Below, one piece after another: positions 10,428 through 29,308 of a stretch of DNA of 35,451 nt (its first letter is position 1; each line of letters begins with the position of its first letter). The translations under genes and the position numbers were made by a program. Below the pieces are notes generated by a model. It was not told the origin of the DNA and did not search any database. It saw only the letters and a program-made list of their open reading frames with translations. The DNA comes from a virus (lineage: Duplodnaviria; Heunggongvirae; Uroviricota; Caudoviricetes): IMG/VR virus record IMGVR_UViG_2695420367_000003, positions 1 through 35,451 of that record; one strand, written 5' to 3'.

Positions 10428-10867
10428 GCAGAGTCACCGCGATTATCTCCGCTCTGATTATCTGCATCATCGTCTGCCTGTCATGGGCTGTTAATCATTA
10501 CCGTGATAACGCCATCGCCTACAAAGAGCAGCGCGATAAAGCCACATCCATCATCGCTGACATGCAGAAGCGTCAACGTGATGTAGCAGAACTCGACGCC
10601 AGATACACAAAGGAGCTTGCTGATGCTAACGCGACTATCGAAAGTCTCCGTGCTGATGTTTCTGCTGGGCGTAAGTGGCTGCGCGTCAAAGCTGTCTGTC
10701 CAGACATGCATAAAATCACCGCCGCCTCCGGCGTGGATGATGGCACCAGCCCCAGACTTACTGACACCGCTCAACGGGATTATTTCACCCTTAGAAAGCG
10801 GATTGAAACCAGTGATAAAATGATCCGAGGCTTGCAGCAATACATTCGCACGCAGTGTGTAAGATGA
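10424..10867 (+). CDS. Rz: Spanin inner-membrane subunit Rz
   Basis: N-terminus [34 protein letters not shown] matches lambda Rz; overlaps the R stop. Confidence 0.9.
10623..10823 (+). CDS. Rz1: Spanin outer-membrane lipoprotein Rz1, embedded in the +1 frame of Rz
   Basis: AAGGAG 7 nt upstream of the ATG; lipoprotein signal (…LLGVSGC) and proline-rich [24 protein letters not shown] as in lambda Rz1. Confidence 0.85.
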
Positions 10868-11247
10868 GCAATCTTTGCTAATTAGCCATGAAATAGATAA
10901 ATATCAGGCCAACGATGATTAGTGCCAGGCATCCTAATTGGTCAGAATGGCTGGCATTTGATCGTCTTGCTCTTCTTGCAGTTGACTGGACAGCCCTCTG
11001 TCCTCGACTTCCTCTTGGCATTCCTCTCATTTATTCTCTCTCAACATTGATATTGAACTGACAGATGATAATTATTTCATGAAAGTGGTATCTCGTTGAT
11101 TTGATTACGCTACATAGTCGCCGGATTTTCGCATTTATCGGCATCGGGCGGTGCAAAATTGGCATAATCGAAACGTAGAGTTTTTGGCTGACAACAGCAT
11201 TAGCGGTCACCCGGAGAGTGTTGTGAACATGTTAATTACATGACGCT

Positions 11248-11568
11248 TTAGATGCATCGACATTTGATGATGCTTGTCAGACCTGTCATTTTCTTTGCTT
11301 CATTTTCAACATTGAGGAAGTTGGTTGAGCATATTTTTTGATAATCTCCAGTTGTGAATCCTGTTTTATCGATCTTACGTTTCAAGGGATTAATCGTTTT
11401 GCAAGATGCTCTATGGATTCTGGTAAAGCGTTCGTCAGATTTATTACCTTTACCTCTGGTTCGCTTCAATGCATTGACAACATATCCGTCTGGATTATCG
11501 CCAAGCCAATTACGATAGTCTGATTCACTCTCAGTCTGAAGGTCACTTCTGAATACCTTTATGGACAT
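11248..11568 (-). CDS. Hypothetical protein where lambda carries bor (possibly the DLP12 ybcV/DUF1398 family)
   Basis: Minus-strand ORF with AGGAG RBS before MSIKVFRSDLQTESESDYRNWLGDNPDGYVVNALKR...; family assignment tentative, from memory. Confidence 0.5.
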   Translation of the reverse strand: MSIKVFRSDLQTESESDYRNWLGDNPDGYVVNALKRTRGKGNKSDERFTRIHRASCKTINPLKRKIDKTGFTTGDYQKICSTNFLNVENEAKKMTGLTSIIKCRCI

Positions 11569-11699
11569 GAAGATACTCCTGTGCATTTATGGTACGAAGA
11601 AATAGCAAAAGGATTTTTACCGTAAATTGCGAATCTACAAAAGCAAAACAATGCGTAATATCAGAGTGAATATTCTGCCTTTAATGTGGGTCCTTCTGA

Positions 11700-11900
11700 T
11701 GACCTGAGCTCTCACGGGGCGGAAGGCGCGCGGGTTTTCGCTATTTATGAAAATTTTCCGGTTTAAGGCGTTTCCGTTCTTCTTCGCCGTAACTTAATGT
11801 TTTTATTTAAAACCCCCCCTGAAAAGAAAGGAAACGACAGATGCTGAAAACGGGCTTTTTGGCCTTTGTCGTTTCCTTTCTCTGTTTTTGTCCGTGGAAT
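11700..11900 (+). promoter_or_regulatory. cos: Helper cos site (cosN-like 12-mer at about 11717-11728, plus cosB with R sites and IHF site) upstream of Nu1
   Basis: …GGGCGGAAGGCG CGCGGGTTTTCGCTATTTATGAAAATTTTCCGGTTTAAGGCGTTTCCGTTCTTCTTCG… is nearly identical to the lambda cos region as I recall it, except within the 12-mer. Confidence 0.8.
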
Positions 11901-17849: not shown

Positions 17850-18125
17850 ATGTCGATGTACACAACCGCCCAGCTGCTGGCGGCAAATGAGCAGAAATTT
17901 AAGTTTGATCCGCTGTTTCTGCGTCTCTTTTTCCGTGAGAGCTATCCCTTCACCACGGAGAAAGTCTATCTCTCACAAATTCCGGGACTGGTAAACATGG
18001 CGCTGTACGTTTCGCCGATTGTTTCCGGTGAGGTTATCCGCTCCCGTGGCGGCTCCACCTCTGAATTTACGCCGGGATATGTCAAACCCAAGCACTTAGC
18101 ATGGCTTTCTGAGGCTTTCGTGTAG
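17850..18125 (+). pseudogene. E: Major capsid protein E, 5' portion only (codons 1 to about 82), interrupted by the satellite insertion
   Basis: MSMYTTAQLLAANEQKFKFDPLFLRLFF…SEFTPGYVKPKH matches the lambda gpE N-terminus, then diverges into 9 unrelated codons and a stop at the insertion junction. Confidence 0.9.
18085..18094. repeat. Left junction core (attL-like) AACCCAAGCA
   Basis: Identical 10-mer at 28518-28527; joining the flanks restores …GTCAAACCCAAGCATGAAGTG… (VKPKHEV of E). Confidence 0.75.
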
Positions 18126-18257
18126 TTGCTGGTTTTTACACTTAATCTTTTGATAATAAAGAATAAGTTTATCTGGCGCTTTCACTGGATTTTCCTCGTT
18201 ATCTGTGTGTTGCAATCATCTCTGTATTGCAGCTTGTATTGCTTTTTGGGGCTAAAA

Positions 18258-19493
18258 ATGGCTGGCGAGAACAAACTGAGCGACAAAGCACTTAAAGGAT
18301 ATCTGGGGAAACCCAGAGAAAAGCAGATCACCATTGCTGATGGAAAGGGGCTTTCTATTCGTGTGAGTACCAAGGGGGCTGTGAGCTTTGTTTTCTTCTA
18401 CAGGTTAGCAGGTGGCCGGGCTGCTCCGGTCTGGCTAACGTTGGGTAAATATCCTGATATGTCACTCAAACAGGCAAGGGAAAAGCGCGACGAGTGCCGT
18501 GGTTGGTTGGCTGACAAACGTGATCCGCGTATCCAGATTAAGATTCAGGCTGAAGAACGCTTAAAGCCGGTCACAGTGGAGGATGCACTAAATTACTGGT
18601 ATGAAAATTACTGTAAGGTGCGTCGTAAAACTCATGCTGTAACGCTTGGCAGATTTCGAAAGCATATCTTTCCCTATATCGGTCATTTGCCCGTAAATGA
18701 CACTCACCTATATGAATGGCTGGACTGTTTTGACCGAATTAAACGTAATGCACCAGTTATGGCGGCGTATGTTTTTTCTGACACTAAATTAGCTCTTCGT
18801 TTTTGTCGGGTACGCCAGTACGCGACGTGTGATGCTTTAAAGGATTTGCGCATGAGTGATGTGGGGCAGATTGCAGGTAAGCGGGATCGGGTTCTGGATG
18901 AAGCCGAACTGGGCCAGCTCTGGAAGGCAATTTTTGTCGAGCCTGATTTAAAACTAATGTCTGAATACACGCGAAAAATGTTTGTGCTTTGTACAGTATT
19001 TGGATGTCGAATGAGTGAAGCCCGATTATCAGAATGGAGCGAATGGGATCTCGAAAGTTGGGTTTGGACTGTACCAAAAGATCACTCAAAAACTGGTGTT
19101 GAAATCGTCAGACCAGTACCTGAAATTCTACGACAGTGGGTAACGGATGTTCACGAAGAGACAAAACATACTGGTTATGTGCTGGGAAGTCTGCGAATTA
19201 GAGAAAGCGTAAGCAAGATTGGGGGGAAAATCGGTAAACGTTTGGGCCATGAAAAACAATGGTCACTACACGACCTTAGAAGAACGCTTTCAACCCATCT
19301 GAGTGATTTGGGCGTTGAGTTTCATGTAGTGGAGCAGCTGTTAGGCCATGCGCTACCTGGCGTGGCAGGTGTTTACAACCGGAGTAAGTTTATGGCTAAA
19401 AAACTGGATGCTCTGGAACTCTGGACTACATATCTCAATAGCATCGCAGCTGCTGATTCAAAAGTGACAATCCTCAAACAAAAGGCTGGTTAA
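18258..19493 (+). CDS. int: Tyrosine integrase (P4-type, with N-terminal arm-binding domain)
   Basis: N-terminal …LSDKALKGYLGKPREKQITIADGKGLSIRVSTKGAVSFVFFYR…; catalytic-region motifs HDLRRT…LLGH…VYNRS; true ATG at 18258, the track start is upstream. Confidence 0.88.
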   Translation: MAGENKLSDKALKGYLGKPREKQITIADGKGLSIRVSTKGAVSFVFFYRLAGGRAAPVWLTLGKYPDMSLKQAREKRDECRGWLADKRDPRIQIKIQAEERLKPVTVEDALNYWYENYCKVRRKTHAVTLGRFRKHIFPYIGHLPVNDTHLYEWLDCFDRIKRNAPVMAAYVFSDTKLALRFCRVRQYATCDALKDLRMSDVGQIAGKRDRVLDEAELGQLWKAIFVEPDLKLMSEYTRKMFVLCTVFGCRMSEARLSEWSEWDLESWVWTVPKDHSKTGVEIVRPVPEILRQWVTDVHEETKHTGYVLGSLRIRESVSKIGGKIGKRLGHEKQWSLHDLRRTLSTHLSDLGVEFHVVEQLLGHALPGVAGVYNRSKFMAKKLDALELWTTYLNSIAAADSKVTILKQKAG

Positions 19494-19494
19494 C

Positions 19495-19728
19495 ATGAAA
19501 AAAATGGCAATTGTCGATAAAAAGGGTCTGGAGTACATTCCTAACATTGACCGTATGATCCGCGAAAAAGAATGCCGTGAGTTAACTACTCTTGCTAATA
19601 GCACTCGATGGAAGTTAGAGAAAGAAGGAAAGTTTCCAAAGCGTATTAAAATAGGTGCCACTGCCGTAGCATATCGCCTTTCGGAGGTGCAGGCGTGGAT
19701 TCGTGGGGAATGGTACTTAAATAAGTAA
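19495..19728 (+). CDS. alpA: AlpA-family HTH regulator/excisionase-like protein
   Basis: …ECRELTTLANSTRWKLEKEGKFPKRIKIGATAVAYRLSEVQAWI… fits the AlpA pattern; directly follows int. Confidence 0.8.
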   Translation: MKKMAIVDKKGLEYIPNIDRMIREKECRELTTLANSTRWKLEKEGKFPKRIKIGATAVAYRLSEVQAWIRGEWYLNK

Positions 19729-19736
19729 ATCATTTC

Positions 19737-19765
19737 AATTAGGTAGGTTTATTACCTACCTAATT
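19737..19765. terminator. Perfect palindrome AATTAGGTAGGT-TTATT-ACCTACCTAATT between convergent genes (bidirectional terminator candidate)
   Basis: Seen directly: 12-bp perfect inverted repeat with a 5-nt loop, between the alpA stop and the stop of the minus-strand 241-aa gene. Confidence 0.6.
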
Positions 19766-19768
19766 AAT

Positions 19769-20494
19769 TTAAATCATGTCTGCCTTATTTCCTAATTTTA
19801 TGGAGCAATCCTCTAAAAGATGCCCGATGAACTTATGAGTTCCAATAACATAATCTTGAAGCCTATATTCCATTCCTAATAATGACTTGTTCTCTTTGTC
19901 CTTGAAAAAAGGAAAAGAGGCAAGGTTTTCATCGACAATATAAAGGTGTTTGATTTTGTTGTTTAAAACCCTAGTTTCGTTAATGACATCGTAAGAATCA
20001 AGTTGGGAGAGGTCAATACCATAACTTAAGTATTTCTTTTTTAATTTATCCCATGTATATGGAACTTTAACTTGACTTTCAGGTATTTCTTTAATAATTG
20101 CTTCTAGCAAAGAGTATGCCATGGTACTAAACTGTTCAATAATAGCCCAAAGATTAATTACGACACTGTCATTGGCAAAAAATGAGGCTTTTCTATTAAG
20201 ATCATCATAATAACCAACCATCTCTCTATGTCTGGCTTGAGAAATCAAGGCCATTTCATGCACTTCATCGTCTAATAAGTCTGGATTATATTGGGGAGTG
20301 TTGTCTGCAATTTTTTGTATCTCCTTAAGATTTATGTTATATGTATGATAAACAAATGAGTGAAATACTATTAGATCTTCAAGTCGGAACGAAAATTTCC
20401 CAAGTAGAGACAGGAATCTACTATCATGAGGGAAATAATGTGGGATAGGATTGTCTGTTAAATTATATTCACTTATTCGTTTTAGATTTTGCAT
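19769..20494 (-). CDS. Hypothetical 241-aa protein, AT-rich cargo (function unknown)
   Basis: Long ORF, visibly AT-rich versus surrounding genes, co-oriented and 24 nt downstream of the RHH gene; no motif I recognise. Confidence 0.6.
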   Translation of the reverse strand: MQNLKRISEYNLTDNPIPHYFPHDSRFLSLLGKFSFRLEDLIVFHSFVYHTYNINLKEIQKIADNTPQYNPDLLDDEVHEMALISQARHREMVGYYDDLNRKASFFANDSVVINLWAIIEQFSTMAYSLLEAIIKEIPESQVKVPYTWDKLKKKYLSYGIDLSQLDSYDVINETRVLNNKIKHLYIVDENLASFPFFKDKENKSLLGMEYRLQDYVIGTHKFIGHLLEDCSIKLGNKADMI

Positions 20495-20518
20495 CTCTCA
20501 CAGATCCTTTTAAAAGTC

Positions 20519-20713
20519 TTAACCTCTAGGTTCAATACCTTGTTTGCGTAGTTCTGCTCTTGCTAGTTCTTTAAGCCAATTAGCCAAACTCATTCCTTCT
20601 TTTGCAGCCGCACTAACCATTTGTTCTTTTAGTTCCGGGTGGATACGGATCTGAAATGCCGGTGCCTTACCAGCACCTTTCGGCTGTTTATCGCGCTGAA
20701 TGATAGTTGACAT
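20519..20713 (-). CDS. Ribbon-helix-helix (CopG/Arc-like) DNA-binding protein; candidate repressor or antitoxin
   Basis: 64 aa; …FQIRIHPELKEQMVSAAAKEGMSLANWLKELARAEL… is typical of RHH proteins; first gene of a leftward operon diverging from the replication module. Confidence 0.65.
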   Translation of the reverse strand: MSTIIQRDKQPKGAGKAPAFQIRIHPELKEQMVSAAAKEGMSLANWLKELARAELRKQGIEPRG

Positions 20714-20716
20714 GTA

Positions 20717-20817
20717 TGTACCTATTGCTTAGTATGCTTCTTGATAGGTACACACCTTATCATGTTTTATTACTCTGTAACAACGCCCTGCAGTGCTCGC
20801 AACACATACAGGGCGTT
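20717..20817. promoter_or_regulatory. Divergent control region with two 9-bp inverted repeats, each with an 18-bp spacer
   Basis: TGTACCTAT…ATAGGTACA (20717-20752) and AACGCCCTG…CAGGGCGTT (20782-20817), between the divergent RHH gene and the 20853 ORF. Confidence 0.5.
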
Positions 20818-20852
20818 TAACCACCAACGATAGCAACAGTATCGAGGTAGCT

Positions 20853-21056
20853 ATGAGAAATCATACCACACACCCGCAAGGGCGGGACCCGCACAACCTG
20901 AATAAATACATCTGGCGTTTTATCGCCCTGAGTACGGCACAACCGCGCGTGATTACCATCGAGGCCACCAGCGAACAGGAAGCCCGCCAGCAATCCCCAA
21001 CTGGCTGCGTGATGATATTCGCCGCCCGTATTCGTCAGGAGGTGTGCCATGAATGA
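20853..21056 (+). CDS. Hypothetical small protein (67 aa)
   Basis: GAGGTAG RBS before the ATG; first gene of the rightward operon leading to the primase. Confidence 0.5.
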   Translation: MRNHTTHPQGRDPHNLNKYIWRFIALSTAQPRVITIEATSEQEARQQSPTGCVMIFAARIRQEVCHE

Positions 21057-21273
21057 TCTTTATTTGAAAGTGCTGACACATGCTGAAAACGCGCTCGTTT
21101 GTGGCAAAAATATGCGAGAAATCTTATCAACCTGGCTTGATGGGACAACAAATGCGGAACACGATGAACGGGATGCTAATTTAGCTGGAGCGTTAATTAC
21201 GTTACTTGATCCTGTCATCAAAGAGCTGGATGAAGCTATAAAAATACACGACCAGAGCTATACCGGAGAATAA
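21049..21273 (+). CDS. Hypothetical small protein (74 aa)
   Basis: AGGAGGTG RBS; start overlaps the upstream ORF stop. Confidence 0.5.
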   Translation: MNDLYLKVLTHAENALVCGKNMREILSTWLDGTTNAEHDERDANLAGALITLLDPVIKELDEAIKIHDQSYTGE

Positions 21274-21276
21274 AAA

Positions 21277-21564
21277 ATGAAAAATAAATTTTCTGGCTTT
21301 ATTGCCAGCGGTCAAACTCATTCAAAAATCAGCCTTGGGGATATTTTCAAAGACAGCTATGGCTATCGGGTAAAGATTATTTCGGTTGATGATCGTCGTG
21401 TCTCTTATTTGCGTGATGGTTATGATTTTGAATGTGTTATGCCGCGTCAGCAGTTCGAAAGAGATTTCATTCTGGTAAAAAATTGCAAGACAGATAATCA
21501 GAGGCGTGCCGCAGGCTATATCCGTAAAATTCGGGCAATGTTAGTTGCCGGAGGTAACAAATGA
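21277..21564 (+). CDS. Hypothetical small protein (95 aa)
   Basis: GGAGAA RBS; stop overlaps the primase start. Confidence 0.5.
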   Translation: MKNKFSGFIASGQTHSKISLGDIFKDSYGYRVKIISVDDRRVSYLRDGYDFECVMPRQQFERDFILVKNCKTDNQRRAAGYIRKIRAMLVAGGNK

Positions 21565-23381
21565 AACGTGCTCCGAACTTAAAATACCAACCGCGCGACA
21601 AAATGACGGAAGTCATCATTTTTGCTGGCAGTGATGCCTGGAGCCATGCAAAAGAATGGAATGAATGGGCAGGTAAGCATATTGCAGCAGATGATACACC
21701 ACCAGTCATTCTGGGTACAGAACAACTGGAAAACCTGGATGATATGCAAATTATCGATGAAGGCCGTCATTATGTGCGTGTTTATCGTGCTGGAAAGATT
21801 GCAGAGAAAAGTCTGACGAAGGTTGCGACATTACTTGCTATTGCAGGCGTAAAGGAAGCACGTTGTTACCGTAGCTTTGTTGATCGAGAGCCTGAAGACT
21901 GGACTCCGCGCCTTGTCGGCCTAAAAGCTGAAGCGGAGCATGGGGAAAGTCTGGTGATTGAACTGCCAGTGAAGAAGGCAGAGCGCAAAAATGACGAGCG
22001 TGCTTCATCTTTGGCGTTGAATCAGATGGGGGCCAGCCAGCGCGGTGAAGTTCTCCTTGCACATTACGGCGGCGAACTGGCAATCAATGCCGACTCTGAC
22101 ACCGTTCATCATTACAACGGCGTTGTATGGGAGCCGGTTCAGGATAAAGAGTTACAGCGTGCTATGGCGCAGATTTTCATTGATGCGGAGATCAGCTATT
22201 CGCAGAACGCTATTAAATCGGCGGTAGATACCATGAAGTTAAGTTTGCCTGTAATGGGGAATACAGCCCGTAACCTGATTGGATTCAGTAACGGGGTATT
22301 TGATACCAGAACTGGTAATTTTCGGGAGCATAACAAAAACGACTGGTTGTTAATTGCCAGTGAATTACCTTTCAGCCCACCAGCAGAGGGGGAAACGCTG
22401 GCAACACATGCGCCGAATTTCTGGAAGTGGTTGCGCCGTTCGGTGGCTGAGAATGACCGCAAGGCAGATCGCGTACTGGCGGCATTATTCATGGTGCTGG
22501 CGAACCGGTACGACTGGCAGTTATTCATTGAGGTAACAGGGCCGGGGGGAAGTGGTAAAAGTGTGATGGCGGAGATTTGCACCATGCTGGCGGGTAAGGC
22601 GAATACAGTATCAGCAAGCATGAAGGCGCTGGAAGATGCAAGGGAACGTGCGTTAGTGGTTGGCTTTTCGCTGATTATCATGCCGGATATGACCCGCTAC
22701 GCTGGTGATGGGGCAGGGATTAAGGCCATTACAGGCGGTGACAAGGTGGCAATTGACCCGAAACACAAAGCCCCCTATTCAACGCGTATTCCGGCAGTAG
22801 TGCTGGCGGTTAACAATAACGCCATGTCATTCAGTGACCGCAGCGGGGGGATCTCACGTCGTCGGGTGATATTCAATTTTTCGGAAGTTGTACCGGAGAA
22901 CGAACGCGATTCGATGCTGGCGGAAAAAATAGAAGGTGAGCTGGCGGTAGTGATTCGTCATCTGCTTACACGGTTTGCTGATCAGGACGAAGCCAGACGC
23001 CTGTTATATGAGCAGCAGAAATCTGAAGAAGCACTGGCGATAAAGCGAGAGGGGGATTCGCTGGTGGACTTCTGCGGCTATCTCATGGCATCGGTAATGT
23101 GTGATGGCCTGTTAGTGGGTAATGCTGAAATTGTGCCATTCAGCCCACGCAGGTATCTCTATCATGCCTATCTGGCTTATATGAGGGCACATGGGTTTGG
23201 TAAACCTGTAACACTGACGCGCTTCGGTAAAGATATGCCGGGGGCAATGGCGGAATATGGCAGGGAGTATATGAAACGGAAAACGAAGCACGGTTTGCGT
23301 TCAAACGTGACACTGACGGAGGAATCAGAAGACTGGATGCCATCATGTGTATCGGTCACTAATGACGATAGCAAAAATTAA
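21561..23381 (+). CDS. Phage/plasmid primase-helicase (P4-alpha-like domain with SF3 helicase Walker A GPGGSGKS)
   Basis: 606 aa; Walker A and downstream helicase-like motifs; immediately followed by the iteron array. Confidence 0.85.
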   Translation: MKRAPNLKYQPRDKMTEVIIFAGSDAWSHAKEWNEWAGKHIAADDTPPVILGTEQLENLDDMQIIDEGRHYVRVYRAGKIAEKSLTKVATLLAIAGVKEARCYRSFVDREPEDWTPRLVGLKAEAEHGESLVIELPVKKAERKNDERASSLALNQMGASQRGEVLLAHYGGELAINADSDTVHHYNGVVWEPVQDKELQRAMAQIFIDAEISYSQNAIKSAVDTMKLSLPVMGNTARNLIGFSNGVFDTRTGNFREHNKNDWLLIASELPFSPPAEGETLATHAPNFWKWLRRSVAENDRKADRVLAALFMVLANRYDWQLFIEVTGPGGSGKSVMAEICTMLAGKANTVSASMKALEDARERALVVGFSLIIMPDMTRYAGDGAGIKAITGGDKVAIDPKHKAPYSTRIPAVVLAVNNNAMSFSDRSGGISRRRVIFNFSEVVPENERDSMLAEKIEGELAVVIRHLLTRFADQDEARRLLYEQQKSEEALAIKREGDSLVDFCGYLMASVMCDGLLVGNAEIVPFSPRRYLYHAYLAYMRAHGFGKPVTLTRFGKDMPGAMAEYGREYMKRKTKHGLRSNVTLTEESEDWMPSCVSVTNDDSKN

Positions 23382-23394
23382 ACTTATGGAATAA

Positions 23395-23620
23395 CTGTTC
23401 ACCACTGTTCACCCTGTCATAAATATCTTTTATATCAGTATATTATAGGGTGAACAGTTATTTATGAACTGTTCACCAAACTATTCACTGTTCACCTTTT
23501 TGATTGTTTATTGAGCTTCAAGGGTGAACAGTGGTGAACAGTTGGTGAATAGTTTTTGTGAAACTGTTCACCCATTAACATTATGAATTAAAAGAGAAAA
23601 TATCAAAAGGTGAACAGGTG
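23395..23620. repeat. Satellite replication origin: at least 10 copies of the iteron GGTGAACAG/CTGTTCACC in both orientations
   Basis: Seen directly: the motif recurs at about 23396, 23406, 23449, 23469, 23489, 23524, 23534, 23545 (variant), 23565 and 23610 within an AT-rich stretch downstream of the primase. Confidence 0.8.
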
Positions 23621-23668
23621 AAGGGTTAAAACGCAAAAATTTTAATTTACTGCTGTGAGATAAAGCCT

Positions 23669-23914
23669 ATGACAGCGAAGCACACAAAAAAATCACAATC
23701 GCACGCCCTTGATTTGACGGAACACTGGTTAAGGGTGTCGATAAAAATCATCGACCGCAACGCCGGGGAAGGATACGCGAAAGCACATCCCGAACTGATT
23801 AGCGCATTCATGACAACGGCGGCTGCAAACTTTGCCACTCTGACCGAACGGGAGATTGCTGAAGCGGAGGAAGTGACAACAATCAATATTAAGTCCGGAG
23901 AGCAGGCAGCATGA
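23669..23914 (+). CDS. Hypothetical protein (81 aa)
   Basis: ORF overlapping the SSB-like gene start; no recognisable motif. Confidence 0.45.
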   Translation: MTAKHTKKSQSHALDLTEHWLRVSIKIIDRNAGEGYAKAHPELISAFMTTAAANFATLTEREIAEAEEVTTINIKSGEQAA

Positions 23915-24360
23915 TGGCGCAAATATCAGTTTACGGGCGGTTGGTGGACGACCCGCAGACAAAACAGACCAGCAAGGGCACCCCCATGACGCTGGCGCGT
24001 ATGGCGGTATCAATGCCCTGCAGTCAGTCGGATGACGGTCAGGCGACGATGTGGTTATCTGTCCTGGCGTTTGGCAGACAAGCCGACGCACTGGCAAAGC
24101 ATCACAAAGGCGAACTCCTGAGCGTGGCGGGTAACATGCAGATGAGCCAGTGGACTGGACAGAACGGCGAAACGCGGCAGGGCTGGCAGGTTATCGCAGA
24201 CAGCGTAATCAGTGCGCGATCGGTGCGACCGGGCGGCAAAAAAGGCCAACAGGGGCAGGCTACTGACGAACTGAACAGAGCAAAACAACAGGCAGATCAG
24301 CAAGGAAGCCAGCCACCAGTGGGAGATAATGAGCAATGGGGAGATGATATCCCGTTTTAA
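23911..24360 (+). CDS. SSB-like single-stranded DNA-binding protein with C-terminal acidic DDIPF tail
   Basis: OB-fold-like N-terminal region parallels E. coli SSB; Gly/Gln-rich linker; C-terminal …EQWGDDIPF. Confidence 0.7.
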   Translation: MMAQISVYGRLVDDPQTKQTSKGTPMTLARMAVSMPCSQSDDGQATMWLSVLAFGRQADALAKHHKGELLSVAGNMQMSQWTGQNGETRQGWQVIADSVISARSVRPGGKKGQQGQATDELNRAKQQADQQGSQPPVGDNEQWGDDIPF

Positions 24361-24375
24361 ATATTGCCAATAAAA

Positions 24376-24401
24376 AAGGCCGGAAAAAATAAATTTTCCG
24401 G
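24376..24401. terminator. Hairpin GCCGGAAAA-AATAAA-TTTTCCGGC downstream of the SSB-like gene
   Basis: Perfect inverted repeat with A-rich and T-rich arms; a possible terminator or attenuator before the capsid genes. Confidence 0.4.
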
Positions 24402-24576
24402 CATGCTACATAAATCCCGACCAAAGGGAGTGAAGATATTAACACTAATTGTCCGCACTGAAGTTGTCACCCCAAAACTTTATACAACATTGCACTCGGT
24501 TGCATGTGTTCGCATGACAAATATCGGTGGTAGCATATATCCACAATTATTTTTAATGAATGCAAAGAGGATGCGT

Positions 24577-25617
24577 ATGGTTGATTTATATTCGCCTACT
24601 CAGCTTGTACAGGTGGTTAATGCTGTAGATGTACAAAAACAACTAAATGCGTTGTTTACCAGTTTGTTTTTTACTCGCTCGGTAATGTTTGAATCGCGCG
24701 ATATTATTCTTGATACAATCGACGATCCAAATATCCCAATTGCAGCGTTTTGTTCTCCTATGGTGGGTAGTAAAGTTTCACGTGACGAAGGGTACGAATC
24801 AAAAACAATTCGTCCAGGCTATATGAAGCCGAAAAGCAGCATTGATCCAAATAAGTTAGCTGTGCGCCCTGCTGGTGTATCACCTGAGCAATACAATGCT
24901 TTTGGGGCACGTAATATTAAAGTTAAACAGGCGATTGTAAATCAAGCTAAAGCTATTCGTGCACGTATTGAATGGCTTGCTGTTCAGGCAATCACAACGG
25001 GGAAAAATATCATTGAGGGCGATGGTATTGAACGTTATGAGCTGGACTGGAATATTAAACCACAAAATATCATCACTCAGTCTGGCGGTGCTGAGTGGTC
25101 AGGTAAGGATAAAGAAACTTTTGATCCAAATGATGATATTGAGAGCTACGCAGAATTTAGTGAGGGCGTCACTAATATTATCATTATGGGCGGTAATGTA
25201 TGGAAGAAATACCGTTCATTCAGAGCGATAAAAGAGGCTCTGGATACCCGTCGTGGTTCTAATTCCGAACTGGAAACGGCCCTTAAAGACCTTGGTGATT
25301 CGGTGAGTTTTAAAGGGTATATGGGCGATGTTGCGATTGTTGTATACAGCGGGCGTTATACCGACGAGGACGGAACTGAAAAACATTTCCTTGATCCTGA
25401 TTTGATGGTGCTTGGCAATACGGCTCTTCAGGGGATTGTCGCCTATGGCGGTATTCAGGATCCGGAGCTAATCCGAATGGGGCTGACTAAAGCCGAACTT
25501 GCACCGAAAAACTATATTGTGCCTGGTGATCCGGCTATTGAATATGTGCAGACACATTCAGCACCACAGCCAATACCGGCCCGCATCAATCGTTTTGTTA
25601 CCGTTCGCATTGGCTAA
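24577..25617 (+). CDS. Satellite-encoded major capsid protein, diverged homolog of lambda gpE
   Basis: C-terminal 180 aa align to lambda E (…SGGAEWSGKDKETFDPNDDIESYA…LDTRRGSNSELETALKDLG…GDVAIVVYSG…); N-terminal half diverged but collinear (RPGYMKPKS vs TPGYVKPKH); GAGG RBS 6 nt before the ATG at 24577. Confidence 0.85.
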   Translation: MVDLYSPTQLVQVVNAVDVQKQLNALFTSLFFTRSVMFESRDIILDTIDDPNIPIAAFCSPMVGSKVSRDEGYESKTIRPGYMKPKSSIDPNKLAVRPAGVSPEQYNAFGARNIKVKQAIVNQAKAIRARIEWLAVQAITTGKNIIEGDGIERYELDWNIKPQNIITQSGGAEWSGKDKETFDPNDDIESYAEFSEGVTNIIIMGGNVWKKYRSFRAIKEALDTRRGSNSELETALKDLGDSVSFKGYMGDVAIVVYSGRYTDEDGTEKHFLDPDLMVLGNTALQGIVAYGGIQDPELIRMGLTKAELAPKNYIVPGDPAIEYVQTHSAPQPIPARINRFVTVRIG

Positions 25618-25626
25618 GGGGGAGCA

Positions 25627-25968
25627 ATGGCTACTCATTACACTGAACTCATGGCTGGCACTGAAGCACTGGTGACTACACTGGGGATATTTTCAGCTAA
25701 TAAAGGGGTAATTCATGCATTTACGCCACTGATGCAGGAAGATGCAACAGGTGCACTGGTGGTATGGGATGGTTCGAGCGTAGGTAAAGCGGTTTATGTT
25801 TCCGCTGTACAAATCGACACCGCGAAAAAAACACAGGCTCAGGTCTATAAGACAGGTGTCTTAAATGTTGATGCTCTGAACTGGCCTGAGTCTGTTAAAG
25901 AACTGTCAGTAAAGGTTGCAGCGTTTGTTGGCTCAGGTATTTCTGTTCAGCCGCTGGCTCGTGTGTAA
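25627..25968 (+). CDS. Satellite-encoded head decoration protein, diverged homolog of lambda gpD
   Basis: 113 aa; shares the spaced pattern TPLM…WDG…G…Q.YK.G…WPE…AF.G..ISV with lambda D (copy at 17462-17794). Confidence 0.65.
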   Translation: MATHYTELMAGTEALVTTLGIFSANKGVIHAFTPLMQEDATGALVVWDGSSVGKAVYVSAVQIDTAKKTQAQVYKTGVLNVDALNWPESVKELSVKVAAFVGSGISVQPLARV

Positions 25969-25979
25969 AGGGGGATACA

Positions 25980-26363
25980 ATGCAGAATGATTACAATGAC
26001 CTTAAGCCAATTGCCGAAATGATGTACCCGAATCAAGCTGTAGAGGAATTAAAAGCTATCGCTGACAAAATGTGTTTAAGCGAGCGCCTTGTTGATATGA
26101 ATCAGGTGATGGAAATTACAACCCTGAGTCGTCGTACACTGCTAAACCTTGAGGCTAGTGGAGAGTTCCCGGAGCGTGTGCAGGTTACGGAAGGGCGTAA
26201 GGCCTGGTATTTAAGTGAAGTGATCGACTGGATAAATAATATTCCTCGCGCTTCTGAATATTGCCGCGTACCTGTCCCAAAAAAGCCAGATGCGGCGCTA
26301 TGCCTCAAGATTGAGCGTGTACGCCGCAATGCACGGGATGGTCGCTATAAGCTGATTGGTTGA
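25980..26363 (+). CDS. HTH DNA-binding protein (AlpA/MerR-like motif) adjacent to satellite cos
   Basis: …MEITTLSRRTLLNLEASGEFPERVQVTEGRKAWYLSEVIDWI… helix-turn-helix; last gene before cos. Confidence 0.6.
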   Translation: MQNDYNDLKPIAEMMYPNQAVEELKAIADKMCLSERLVDMNQVMEITTLSRRTLLNLEASGEFPERVQVTEGRKAWYLSEVIDWINNIPRASEYCRVPVPKKPDAALCLKIERVRRNARDGRYKLIG

Positions 26364-26413
26364 TGAAGTTAGGGCCCGCTCTGGCTGGCGGGTCCTTTCC
26401 GGCGATCCAGAAC

Positions 26414-26600
26414 GTTACGGGGCGTCAGGCGCGCAGATTCTTGCTATTTATGACAATTTTCTGCGATTTGCCGTTTCCGTTCTTCTTCCTCGTAACTTAG
26501 TGTTTTTACTAGAAATACCCTCTTAAAAGAAAGGAAATGACAGGTGCTGAAAACAGGCTTTTGGGTCTCCGTCATTTCCTTTCTCATTTTTATCTAAAAG
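26414..26600 (+). promoter_or_regulatory. cos: Satellite cos site (cosN-like 12-mer at about 26420-26431 plus cosB-like R and IHF elements), no terminase gene attached
   Basis: About 190 bp closely similar to the helper cos region (…CGTTTCCGTTCTTCTTC…AAAAGAAAGGAAA.GACAG.TGCTGAAAAC.GGCTTTT…TTTCCTTTCTC…); not followed by Nu1. Confidence 0.8.
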
Positions 26601-26815
26601 TAAGCATCGAGGCCACCCCAAATGCTTATAGAGGTTATTGTGTCACTATGCGTACTGTTCAGGATTTAAAGTAGCAAGACATCTAGTTGCTTGCAGTTTT
26701 GGCGAATGATGTGAGGTTCTCTATAACAGATAATGTAACAAGTTACTGATATATTCTGTTATGGTTGACTTTAAATTCTGTTGCTCCTTCAATGAATTAT
26801 TGAGGGGTGAAAATT

Positions 26816-26841
26816 AGGCGTGATAAGAATCGATCACGCCT
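26816..26841. terminator. Hairpin AGGCGTGAT-AAGAATCG-ATCACGCCT just beyond the 3' end of the minus-strand cargo gene
   Basis: Perfect 9-bp stem; T-rich on the plus side and A-rich on the minus side. Confidence 0.5.
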
Positions 26842-26846
26842 ATTGT

Positions 26847-28163
26847 TTATCTTGAAGAAATTTTAGGCAGGCTTTTTAAAAATAAATCTTTATTTCTACT
26901 TGCATCAGTTAAAAGTGTTAGGAATATTTTATCTGTAGGAGTGCATGTGCTCTTGTTTAACAGTAATTCACCAAGTTTCTGTAATCGAGAGAATTGCCCA
27001 TCCTCTTGGATTCTGTGACGAAGTGTACTATCATTTTTAATAACATCAACAAATGCAGAAACCATGTTAATATCAAAGTATTCAAACATTTCCAATATTA
27101 AAGGTGCAGCCCCATTTGAATAAAAATTCTTCCTTCCATACTGATAGCTGAAACCACGATGGCCAACATAAGTTTTTGTAATGGCTGAAACAAATTCAAC
27201 AATATTATCTTCAGGGACGAAACTCGAGAATGGTAATAATTGGGTTACGATTTTTTCCTCTTCTGACCAATTATCTAAAGACTCGGTGAGTTTATTAATG
27301 AGAGGCTCAATAATAACTTTTCGGGATGCAGGGCTAATATACATCAGTCCATCTACCAATAGTATGAATTGTTGTGCCTTCTCTATCTTATTGTTGTTTC
27401 CTGAAACTAAATACTTGTCAAATTGTTGGCCGACTTTACGTCGGTCGTCTTTTGAAAGTAATGTCCATAAAATAGGTGCGCAAAATTCAATGTTGTTTCT
27501 GAGTTCACTTGATATATTGGATGAGCAGTATGTGCCAAAAAAACGAGAGGATAATTCACTGATATAAATTGCAGGTAGATCTGAAAAGGCTTGCTTAACT
27601 GCCAGACTATTTTTATTAAATGTTGCCGAATCCATTTCTGAAAGATATGTAGATATATCTATGATGGCTGGTGGAAACTCTTTAGAAAGAACGTATTTAT
27701 TACAATCATTAATCAGGTTCACTACTTTGATTAAATCAGGGTCGCTACTTTGTGGATGTCCACCAAATAGATTCCTGGTTTCTCTAGCTTGTTGTAATAG
27801 TTTCTGACCTTCTCGATCGATAACTCCTATTTTAAATGCTCCATCTATTAAATCAAAGTCGCTCACATAATCCTGAAAATCTTCATACGTTTTAATTTCT
27901 TTTTTTTGTTTACACTCTTTGTTGAATAGATCTAGGCTACGATGAATTATCTTTTGACGTAAATCATCAACTACAGCATTCCAGTAAGCAGTGATGGCAC
28001 TTCTATAACCTTTTACAGGAAGAACTCTTATTGCTTCTGAAATATATGGGCAGTCAACTACATCATGCCTCACAGTTGAGAGCGCAGTTTGTAACAATGT
28101 AACTTCTGTAGAGTCTAGTGGAGTTGGCTGCACTAAATGAGAACTTATCTCTGTACCCTTCAT
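26847..28163 (-). CDS. Hypothetical 438-aa protein, AT-rich cargo (function unknown; candidate accessory or defence gene)
   Basis: Long uninterrupted ORF, visibly AT-rich, between satellite cos and the right junction; no motif I recognise. Confidence 0.6.
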   Translation of the reverse strand: MKGTEISSHLVQPTPLDSTEVTLLQTALSTVRHDVVDCPYISEAIRVLPVKGYRSAITAYWNAVVDDLRQKIIHRSLDLFNKECKQKKEIKTYEDFQDYVSDFDLIDGAFKIGVIDREGQKLLQQARETRNLFGGHPQSSDPDLIKVVNLINDCNKYVLSKEFPPAIIDISTYLSEMDSATFNKNSLAVKQAFSDLPAIYISELSSRFFGTYCSSNISSELRNNIEFCAPILWTLLSKDDRRKVGQQFDKYLVSGNNNKIEKAQQFILLVDGLMYISPASRKVIIEPLINKLTESLDNWSEEEKIVTQLLPFSSFVPEDNIVEFVSAITKTYVGHRGFSYQYGRKNFYSNGAAPLILEMFEYFDINMVSAFVDVIKNDSTLRHRIQEDGQFSRLQKLGELLLNKSTCTPTDKIFLTLLTDASRNKDLFLKSLPKISSR

Positions 28164-28517
28164 TTCAGGATTTTCCTATTCTTTTCCATTTTTCTACTCT
28201 ATTGAATTTGAAAAAGATATCAAGTTCGTTCTTGCCAGTTTTAAGTGGAAAAATTGATGTTACCTTATTGAGATAAGGCAGTTCTCTATAACCTATTGTT
28301 ATTAATTATTTTTATTTTTTTTCCAATTCAGATGTTTAGGGCTAAGAAGTTAAGTGAGAGTTCACAGCAAAACTGCTTCTAGTTCCTCACCGAGGAGCAA
28401 AAGGTTAAGACAGCGTACTTTGTATTGCACAATGTATTGCAGAACCTTCTTTCGAAAGCTACAACAATCAATTTTATATTGAAAATTCAATCATATCCTT
28501 TCGATATTGACTCATAT

Positions 28518-28527
28518 AACCCAAGCA
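28518..28527. repeat. Right junction core (attR-like) AACCCAAGCA
   Basis: Identical to 18085-18094; the downstream sequence continues in the E reading frame. Confidence 0.75.
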
Positions 28528-29308
28528 TGAAGTGAATCCGCAGATGACCCTGCGTCGCCTGCCGGATGAAGATCCGCAGAATCTGGCGGACCCGGCTTAC
28601 CGTCGCCGTCGCATCATCATGCAGAACATGCGTGACGAAGAGCTGGCCATTGCCCAGGTGGAAGAGATGCAGGCAGTTTCTGCCGTGCTTAAGGGCAAAT
28701 ACACCATGACCGGTGAAGCCTTCGATCCGGTTGAGGTGGATATGGGTCGCAGTGCGGCGAATAACATCACGCAGTCCGGCGGCACGGAGTGGAGTAAGCG
28801 TGATAAGTCCACGTATGACCCGACCGACGATATCGAAGCCTACGCGCTGAACGCCAGCGGTGTGGTGAATATCATCGTGTTTGATCCGAAAGGCTGGGCG
28901 CTGTTCCGTTCCTTCAAAGCCGTCAGGGAGAAGCTGGATACCCGTCGCGGCTCTCATTCCGAACTGGAGACAGCGGTAAAAGACCTGGGCAAAGCGGTGT
29001 CTTATAAGGGAATGTATGGCGATGTGGCCATCGTCGTGTATTCCGGACAGTACGTGGAAAATGGTGTCAAAAAGAACTTCCTGCCGGACAACACGATGGT
29101 GCTGGGCAACACTCAGGCACGCGGTCTGCGCACCTATGGCTGCATTCAGGATGCGGACGCACAGCGCGAAGGCATTAACGCCTCTGCCCGTTACCCGAAA
29201 AACTGGGTGACCACCGGCGATCCGGCGCGTGAGTTCACCATGATTCAGTCAGCACCGCTGATGCTGCTGGCTGACCCTGATGAGTTCGTGTCCGTACAAC
29301 TGGCGTAA
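28520..29308 (+). pseudogene. E: Major capsid protein E, 3' portion (codons about 80 to 341), separated from its 5' portion by the satellite
   Basis: …KHEVNPQMTLRRLPDEDPQNLADPAYRRRRIIMQNMRDEELAIAQ… to the C-terminus …DPDEFVSVQLA matches lambda gpE; no own start codon or RBS. Confidence 0.9.

Follow-up and report, generated by a model that had tools for sequence, protein, structure and literature searches.

The locus studied here lies in a 35,451-nucleotide (nt) stretch of Caudoviricetes DNA (IMG/VR record IMGVR_UViG_2695420367_000003, positions 1 to 35,451), referred to below as the window. It consists of two leftward open reading frames (ORFs), one encoding a 64-amino-acid (aa) ribbon-helix-helix (RHH) protein and the other a 241-aa protein, carried by a satellite element that is itself inserted in a prophage. 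A preliminary description, made from the sequence alone, had presented the pair as an AT-rich two-gene cargo operon between alpA and the replication module. Both ORFs and the exact 24-nt gap between them were confirmed, yet only one half of the cargo claim stands: the 241-aa gene behaves as exchangeable cargo, whereas the RHH gene belongs to the conserved satellite backbone. The features of the locus are the following.

18085-28527 (+): satellite, identified by Pfam and PHROG scans, the split Phage_cap_E gene and the attachment (att) core
19716-20522: exchangeable cassette, without homology to sister satellites that have both flanks in common with the window
19735-19767: hairpin with a perfect 14-bp stem and a 5-nt loop, between the convergent alpA and 241-aa genes
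19769-20494 (-): 241-aa cargo gene, recognised as an ORF with a GC content of 0.325, a low substitution ratio (dN/dS of 0.12) and a family motif
20495-20518 (-): 24-nt spacer from the RHH stop codon to the 241-aa start codon
20519-20713 (-): 64-aa ribbon-helix-helix gene, with Pfam HicB and PHROG Arc-like repressor matches
20707-20755 (+): divergent control region, with a sigma-70-like promoter and an inverted repeat

The chance of 241 stop-free codons at 32.5% GC is approximately 6e-9. When the 241-aa gene is compared with its Raoultella orthologue, the ratio of nonsynonymous to synonymous substitution rates (dN/dS) is 0.12, and comparison of the RHH gene with its homologues gives 0.06-0.17. 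Given the low probability of such an open frame and these low ratios, both ORFs are considered genuine genes. The AT-richness attributed to the pair holds for the 241-aa gene (GC 0.325) but not for the RHH gene (GC 0.441), which is similar in composition to its surroundings (alpA 0.419, int 0.458, primase 0.499). The palindrome that had been described as closing the operon is real and perfect, and a 76-nt segment containing it has a folding energy of -20.8 kcal/mol (z = -5.46 against shuffled sequences). Its designation as a terminator fared less well: neither strand has a canonical U-tract, and a consensus terminator scan did not call the hairpin. The hairpin is likely a bidirectional transcript end, and, by the homology breakpoints given below, it belongs to the exchangeable cassette.

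The window as a whole is a lambdoid E. coli prophage, with genes for replication proteins O and P, Q, terminase, portal, protease, decoration and tail proteins. The major capsid gene of the prophage is interrupted, with Phage_cap_E profile positions 1-78 at 17850-18125 and positions 94-328 at 28532-29308. An att core of 10 bp, AACCCAAGCA, is repeated at 18085-18094 and 28518-28527, and removing the insert in silico restores the sequence ...YVKPKH joined directly to EVNPQM.... Gene content, split capsid gene and att core thus bear out the earlier view of the element as a satellite. The 10.4-kb insert carries, in this order, integrase, AlpA, the cargo slot, RHH, Icd-like, DUF4222, D5-type primase, SSB, capsid and decoration genes, followed by a second AlpA-like gene and, on the opposite strand, an AT-rich 438-aa gene, which occupies a right-end cargo slot.

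Helper-embedded phage-inducible chromosomal islands (HE-PICIs), including those at site E:Phage_cap_E:80, were described by Tommasini, Mageeney and Williams in 2023 (PMC10111431). Since the split Phage_cap_E gene, the att core and the int-alpA...primase...capsid layout match those elements, the insert is a helper-embedded PICI of the E:Phage_cap_E:80 type, located at codon ~80 of the capsid gene. Like them, it interrupts the cognate of lambda gene E at that codon, is co-oriented with the late operon, and combines int and AlpA with a primase/SSB replication zone and with late genes, namely capsid and decoration, that it has captured. The element itself shows no difference from this type; the RHH/operator switch and the cargo gene are absent from the discussion in PMC10111431. 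The same architecture is present in other E. coli genomes, and parts of the satellite backbone were found in 2132 complete E. coli genomes. The satellite is a mosaic: strain ET665 matches it in backbone and right-end cargo (91% coverage, 98.2% identity), and strain RM14723 in the left cargo.

Two observations concern the relation between satellite and helper. Excision would give back an intact lambda-type major capsid gene, and the satellite brings its own major capsid and decoration genes (24577-25968) while interrupting its helper's capsid gene. A further one concerns E. coli RM14723 (L001), where the RHH/241-aa locus has its closest copy (99.2% identity). The integrase and primase of its satellite are annotated as frameshifted (10530-11764 and 14232-15982 of L001), and its cargo and RHH genes are intact; the cargo thus seems to have been kept in a decaying satellite.

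The edges of the variable segment were defined by blastn of the window against two sister satellites (L002 and L003), which have both flanks in common with it. Homology to L002 and L003 stops at 19715/19739 and restarts at 20517/20523. Because the right edge falls at the RHH stop codon, the RHH gene is placed outside the cassette. Judged by these breakpoints, the exchangeable piece very probably comprises the 241-aa gene, the hairpin and the 24-nt spacer, with the RHH gene as its conserved right flank. This agrees with the distribution of the RHH family, whose members (28-88% identity) are found at the same place, divergent from the icd-like gene, beside eight other slot contents. Nine different slot states were seen among the sampled satellites; those found in the other elements are listed below.

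L002: PD-T7-1 (PADLOC, 1.2e-124)
L003: SWIM protein and 273-aa protein
L004: 178-aa protein
L005: TIR protein on the opposite strand (PDC-S35, 6.9e-67; CAP12/Pycsar TIR)
L040: putAbiC protein (2.8e-16)
L041: Bro-N protein and 147-aa protein
L042: 158-aa protein
L043 (E. coli E2348/69): empty slot

In the last of these (NC_011601.1, 3183-3979), just 55 nt separate the RHH gene from the alpA-like gene, and no cargo gene intervenes. Among 5426 complete E. coli genomes, the 241-aa gene is present in four, and RHH is detectable in 42.

The comparison of homologous satellites that the preliminary description had proposed therefore shows a locus that is not invariant, since related elements hold other genes between alpA and the replication module, anti-phage genes (PD-T7-1, putAbiC, TIR) among them, and the 241-aa protein is no core replication or packaging protein. 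PD-T7-1, from an E. coli pangenome screen (PMC9519451), has been validated by experiment as a defence gene, and is here itself an allele of the alpA/RHH slot. Given that the alleles include PD-T7-1, a putAbiC protein and a TIR protein, the slot, judged by its gene content, behaves like the defence hotspots of P4-like satellites (PMC9122126). In both cases a fixed slot between backbone genes has its content swapped among near-identical elements, and the satellite in the window also has a second variable slot at its other end; unlike the P4-like satellites, the present element is a helper-embedded PICI inside a capsid gene. The alpA/RHH slot is not described as a defence hotspot in the literature examined: PMC10111431 names the zone "Bro" and mentions neither defence cargo nor RHH.

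At the right-end slot, related satellites contain an AbiJ/Abi_C protein, an Mrr-like restriction endonuclease or the 438-aa protein. In the window this position is held by the 438-aa gene (26847-28163, -; GC 0.348), the product of which matches only PHROG 27609, of uncharacterised function, and has no Pfam or PADLOC match. This gene is a candidate second defence gene by virtue of its position. The Tai tail-assembly-interference system was also considered for the cargo of the alpA/RHH slot and set aside, as in PICIs the Tai genes are found downstream of pri.

The distribution of the 241-aa family was then compared with that of the RHH family. Close homologues of the 241-aa protein (47-80% identity) came solely from Citrobacter, Raoultella, Yersinia and a few metagenomes. 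All of them occupy the alpA/RHH slot of related satellites, and some of these satellites are themselves inserted in a prophage protease-capsid gene. A profile search of 1.84 billion representatives gave 261 relatives at E <= 1e-3. Using a 24-sequence alignment, 26 genomic and nine viral loci were recovered, spanning Proteobacteria, Cyanobacteria and Planctomycetota; the hosts include Vibrio, Xenorhabdus, Halomonas, Pseudomonas, Acinetobacter, Psychrobacter, Bradyrhizobium, several cyanobacteria, a planctomycete and others. Two plasmids carry a family gene, and no isolated phage does. An RHH profile search found no RHH gene within 2.5 kb of the relatives outside satellites, and scans of the neighbours at 26 genomic and seven viral loci found no conserved partner gene. 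Of 26 loci with distant relatives and a further three, none carries this RHH or a constant partner. The neighbours are varied, and include thyA, lgt, SMC, integrases, HipA, an IS200 transposase, an HNH protein and umuDC. Several family copies are truncated or pseudogenised (L034-L036, L038). Given the absence of RHH or of any constant partner and the variety of neighbours, the 241-aa family is, as far as gene neighbourhoods indicate, a stand-alone, horizontally scattered gene. A literature search under the RefSeq protein accessions returned no match.

Some of the distant relatives recur in particular settings. In three IMG/VR contigs they directly follow umuDC-like genes (L050 4928-6633, L051 4879-6627, L052 4471-6720), the family gene being preceded, in two of them, by a conserved 225-242-aa protein. 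In L013 and L034 (a Vibrio and an alphaproteobacterium), the family gene is wedged beside thyA. The umuDC- and thyA-linked copies may represent further insertion hotspots or a two-gene variant.

The preliminary description had found no recognisable motif in the 241-aa protein. The family libraries are indeed empty for it, but within its own family a sharply conserved motif emerges, E173-x-R175-x-x-N178-N179-x-x-K182-H183, together with E120. Conservation was counted over 90 family sequences, which are otherwise 15-35% identical, with the following result.

E120: 89 of 90
E173: 85 of 90
R175: 87 of 90
N178: 85 of 90
N179: 90 of 90
K182: 90 of 90
H183: 90 of 90

An AlphaFold model built with an 11-sequence alignment has a mean predicted local distance difference test (pLDDT) score of 90.8 and a predicted template modelling (pTM) score of 0.84. 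It is all-helical, with predicted helices at 25-64, 76-135, 148-157, 168-183 and 212-240.

This arrangement was compared with the definition of the HEPN superfamily (PMC3710099), in which an Rx4-6H motif ends helix 3, a polar residue (N, D or H) follows the arginine, helix 2 carries an acidic residue, typically as Ex3[KR], and an insert separates helices 2 and 3; metal-independent RNase activity at a composite active site of the dimer is a further mark of the superfamily. In the model the motif is at the C-terminal end of helix 168-183, H183 being its last residue. The position after that of the arginine is occupied by the invariant N179; E120 is in the second long helix and is followed by K124 (26 of 90) or by R/K125 (63 of 90); and residues 136-167 form an insert between helices 2 and 3. 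We conclude that the 241-aa protein is HEPN-like with a variant active site; lacking the motif that defines canonical HEPN RNases, it is not classed among them. There are precedents for such a variant: the Parep1/8 and c2405 families keep the histidine and have lost the arginine, and HEPN-fold proteins without the arginine also include non-catalytic regulators such as MtlR (PMC3710099). The c2405 family differs from the present protein in being fused to an alpha+beta AbiTii N-terminal domain, the 241-aa protein being all-helical.

A statistically weak likeness was found to DUF4145 (PF13643), of the HEPN clan. When the family was aligned by hhalign with a 28-sequence DUF4145 alignment, the match was co-linear over 84 columns (P = 0.009, probability 4.3%), with a common R-x-L-[R/N]-N-x-x-x-H-L pattern and helix-2 W/E register. 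In this register E120 corresponds to E104, N178 to R151, N179 to N152 and H183 to H156, and the segment MRHLRNSAAHL of a Raoultella DUF4145 protein is placed against TRVLNNKIKHL of the 241-aa protein. No member of the 241-aa family matches the Pfam DUF4145 model. The Raoultella protein is encoded in the satellite of R. ornithinolytica CP115998.1 (L006, 4003-4581), is a canonical DUF4145 HEPN protein, and is found in the other accessory region, or cargo slot, of that satellite, which also has an orthologue of the 241-aa gene; this one element hence carries two HEPN-type genes.

Among characterised proteins, HepS of the Salmonella prophage Gifsy-1 (PMC13043305, PDB 9oik), a solo HEPN abortive-infection protein, offers a comparison. 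Like the 241-aa protein it is a single protein of similar length (218 aa versus 241 aa) with no conserved partner, carried by a lambdoid-associated mobile element in one of its accessory slots, and the two would by analogy act alike, latent until a phage trigger and then cleaving RNA. They have no detectable sequence similarity. HepS has a canonical R100-x4-H105 motif, at ~48% of its length, whereas the 241-aa family has N-N-x-x-K-H, with an arginine three residues further upstream, at ~76%. Membership in the MNT-HEPN (HepT/MntA) group was considered and rejected: no nucleotidyltransferase gene is adjacent to the gene in the window or present among 73 neighbours of its relatives, and in place of the RX4HXY motif the family has NNxxKH followed by L.

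The identification of the 64-aa protein as an RHH protein was upheld by matches to Pfam HicB, which is an RHH-type model (22.1 bits, cutoff 21), and to the PHROG Arc-like repressor (8.6e-7). It also matches NCBIfam YlcI/YnfO (YlcI_YnfO_N), and an RHH homologue matches RHH_1. In size and predicted beta-alpha-alpha layout it resembles the Arc/Mnt/CopG repressors, the C-terminal RHH domain of HicB and YlcI/YnfO, and its gene, as with the Arc/Mnt/CopG repressors, adjoins an inverted repeat in a divergent promoter region. With neither the HicB N-terminal domain nor a HicA partner, the protein is misleadingly named "HicB family antitoxin" in RefSeq.

Upstream of the RHH gene, a rightward sigma-70-like promoter with a 10/12 match (TTGACA at 20707-20712, a 17-nt spacer and TAGTAT at 20730-20735) points to the icd-like/primase operon. 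An inverted repeat, its arms at 20714-20725 and 20744-20755, flanks the -10 element of this promoter, and the sequence TTGACAT overlapping the RHH start codon is invariant among the aligned satellites. In satellites with a diverged RHH protein, the symmetry of the repeat is kept and the arm sequences have changed. Because the arms co-vary with RHH while the symmetry stays, as would be expected of an operator co-evolving with its repressor, the repeat is the putative RHH operator, and we infer that RHH is the satellite's repressor or autoregulator. Of the possibilities raised in the preliminary description, that of an RHH protein acting as the satellite's own repressor with a co-transcribed effector fits the data best.

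Two other kinds of switch were considered and rejected. A P4-type immunity RNA (C4/isrK) gave no Rfam match at gathering thresholds, nor at E <= 1 in 19400-21700, and the PICI repressor reported for EcCIMP1 is a PerC/ANR-like protein, unrelated to this RHH. The region also contains a stem-loop at 20782-20817, with a 9-bp stem and an 18-nt loop (AACGCCCTG...CAGGGCGTT), in the 5' leader of the icd-like gene, whose true ATG is probably at 20853. Satellites from Raoultella and metagenomes retain this stem-loop, with compensatory changes, and it has no Rfam match; it may be an attenuator or an antisense-RNA target.

On balance, we lean towards reading the 241-aa protein as a solo HEPN-like abortive-infection candidate, read through from the satellite's RHH regulator. 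RHH would bind the inverted repeat around the -10 element and repress the rightward icd-like/primase promoter, and with it the replication functions of the satellite; it would probably repress its own promoter as well. As the 24-nt spacer leaves no room for a promoter of its own, the cargo gene would be expressed from the RHH transcript during satellite quiescence, with transcription ending at the 19735-19767 hairpin. The protein would adopt a divergent HEPN-like four-helix bundle in which an insert separates helices 2 and 3, placing E120 in helix 2 and R175, N178, N179, K182 and H183 at the end of helix 3. With the canonical arginine replaced by asparagine, R175 or K182 would supply the positive charge. 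By analogy with HepS, the latent protein would sense an infecting phage and cleave RNA (tRNA or mRNA) without metal ions, and the resulting abortive infection would protect the lysogen, the helper prophage and the satellite. Taken separately, a defence role for the protein is probable, and RNase chemistry, which is argued from the same analogy, is an evenly balanced proposition.

Several results weigh against this proposal. The Rx4-6H motif is absent, position 178 being asparagine in 85 of the 90 sequences, and the nearest arginine, R175, gives Rx7H, so that RNase activity may be lacking. The hhalign probability for DUF4145 is only 4%, and hhalign against the AbiJ/Abi_C and putAbiC proteins of sister satellites was negative. 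The 241-aa protein is unmatched in Pfam, PADLOC-DB 2.0 and PHROGs, NCBIfam gave noise far below its cutoffs, Pfam searches with the 90 family members found no match at E <= 0.01 or at E <= 10, and neither the PDB nor BFVD yielded a significant Foldseek match. A profile search against PDB sequences likewise gave chance matches only. With regard to expression, neither a promoter scan nor inspection by eye revealed a convincing leftward promoter for the RHH gene, and both RHH binding to the repeat and read-through into the cargo gene are deduced from sequence. The defence role is argued from hotspot position, and some of the slot alleles are themselves uncharacterised.

One rival is that the 241-aa protein has a HEPN-like fold and no nuclease activity, with a binding or regulatory function, as in MtlR, or an accessory one unrelated to phages. 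The missing arginine suits this explanation, as does the list in PMC3710099 of non-catalytic HEPN families that have lost the motif. It is nevertheless unlikely, given that E120, E173, R175, N178, N179, K182 and H183 are near-invariant in approximately 90 divergent sequences, a pattern that resembles an active site, and that the histidine, the residue after the arginine position and the helix-2 glutamate are all in the register of a catalytic HEPN family. The patchy distribution, the location in mobile elements and the pseudogenised copies also fit a conflict gene. A role in the life cycle of the satellite, by which the protein would interfere with or sense the helper or regulate induction, draws on the position of the gene between the integration and replication modules, a "dynamic zone" that holds Bro-type regulators in other Gram-negative PICIs (PMC10111431). 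One sister element has a Bro-N protein there, and the gene would be co-transcribed with a regulator. Such a role is very unlikely: sister elements of the same backbone do without the 241-aa gene, which is hence dispensable, its relatives outside satellites are found beside housekeeping genes (in Vibrio, cyanobacteria, Bradyrhizobium and others), and the alleles of the same slot include a validated defence gene.

The toxin-antitoxin module proposed in the preliminary description is a further rival. In a dedicated type II system, RHH would neutralise a 241-aa toxin and autoregulate, and the pair would move as a unit. The gene order is the classic one, with the small DNA-binding gene first and the larger gene 24 nt downstream on the same strand; RefSeq labels the RHH protein "HicB family antitoxin"; HEPN-like proteins are often toxins (PMC3710099); and all close homologues, in Raoultella, Yersinia and metagenomes, are directly downstream of an RHH homologue. 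This last co-occurrence is explained by the common satellite slot. The cassette boundary separates the RHH and 241-aa genes, the RHH family is found beside eight other contents, including opposite-strand cargo and no cargo at all, and distant relatives of the 241-aa protein are never accompanied by RHH or by a conserved small upstream gene. The two proteins do not co-diverge either, as the Yersinia RHH is 28% identical and its cargo 47%. With the two genes not exchanged as a unit and without conserved co-occurrence, the toxin-antitoxin candidate is quite unlikely and was abandoned in favour of the solo effector read through from the RHH regulator.

A broader form of the solo-effector reading is put forward tentatively, and is less likely than not. 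In it, an unnamed and scattered family of solo HEPN-derived effectors, with the catalytic arginine replaced and another arginine a single helical turn upstream, would act as a single-gene abortive-infection system in an undescribed HE-PICI hotspot, wired to the RHH promoter so that defence is on while the satellite is silent and off upon induction of the satellite and its helper. If this is true, the fall in defence upon induction would spare the helper.

Three points are new here: an unnamed protein family, absent from the defence databases searched, whose HEPN-like motif is non-canonical; the identification of a defence slot of helper-embedded PICIs in the alpA/RHH interval; and the re-reading of a "HicB family antitoxin" as, more likely, the satellite's switch protein. 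The satellite type, the principle of defence hotspots and solo HEPN effectors were already known, and the present finding extends these without introducing a new principle. Should the 241-aa protein be a true anti-phage effector, it would represent a new family of approximately 260 representative clusters that no defence-finder model covers, and a natural test of a HEPN active site working without the canonical arginine. The alpA/RHH slot can be used for mining further defence genes, such as the 147-, 158-, 178- and 273-aa alleles, and the relabelling of RHH matters for toxin-antitoxin counts and for how Gram-negative PICIs are understood to stay silent.

Outside the satellite, morons are present in the prophage between replication gene P and antiterminator gene Q. 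One (1811-5719, +) encodes a 1302-aa inverse autotransporter of the intimin/invasin-like type, with IAT_beta and Big_1/Invasin_D3 repeats, and another (5756-6799, -) encodes a 347-aa BD-FAE/alpha-beta hydrolase.

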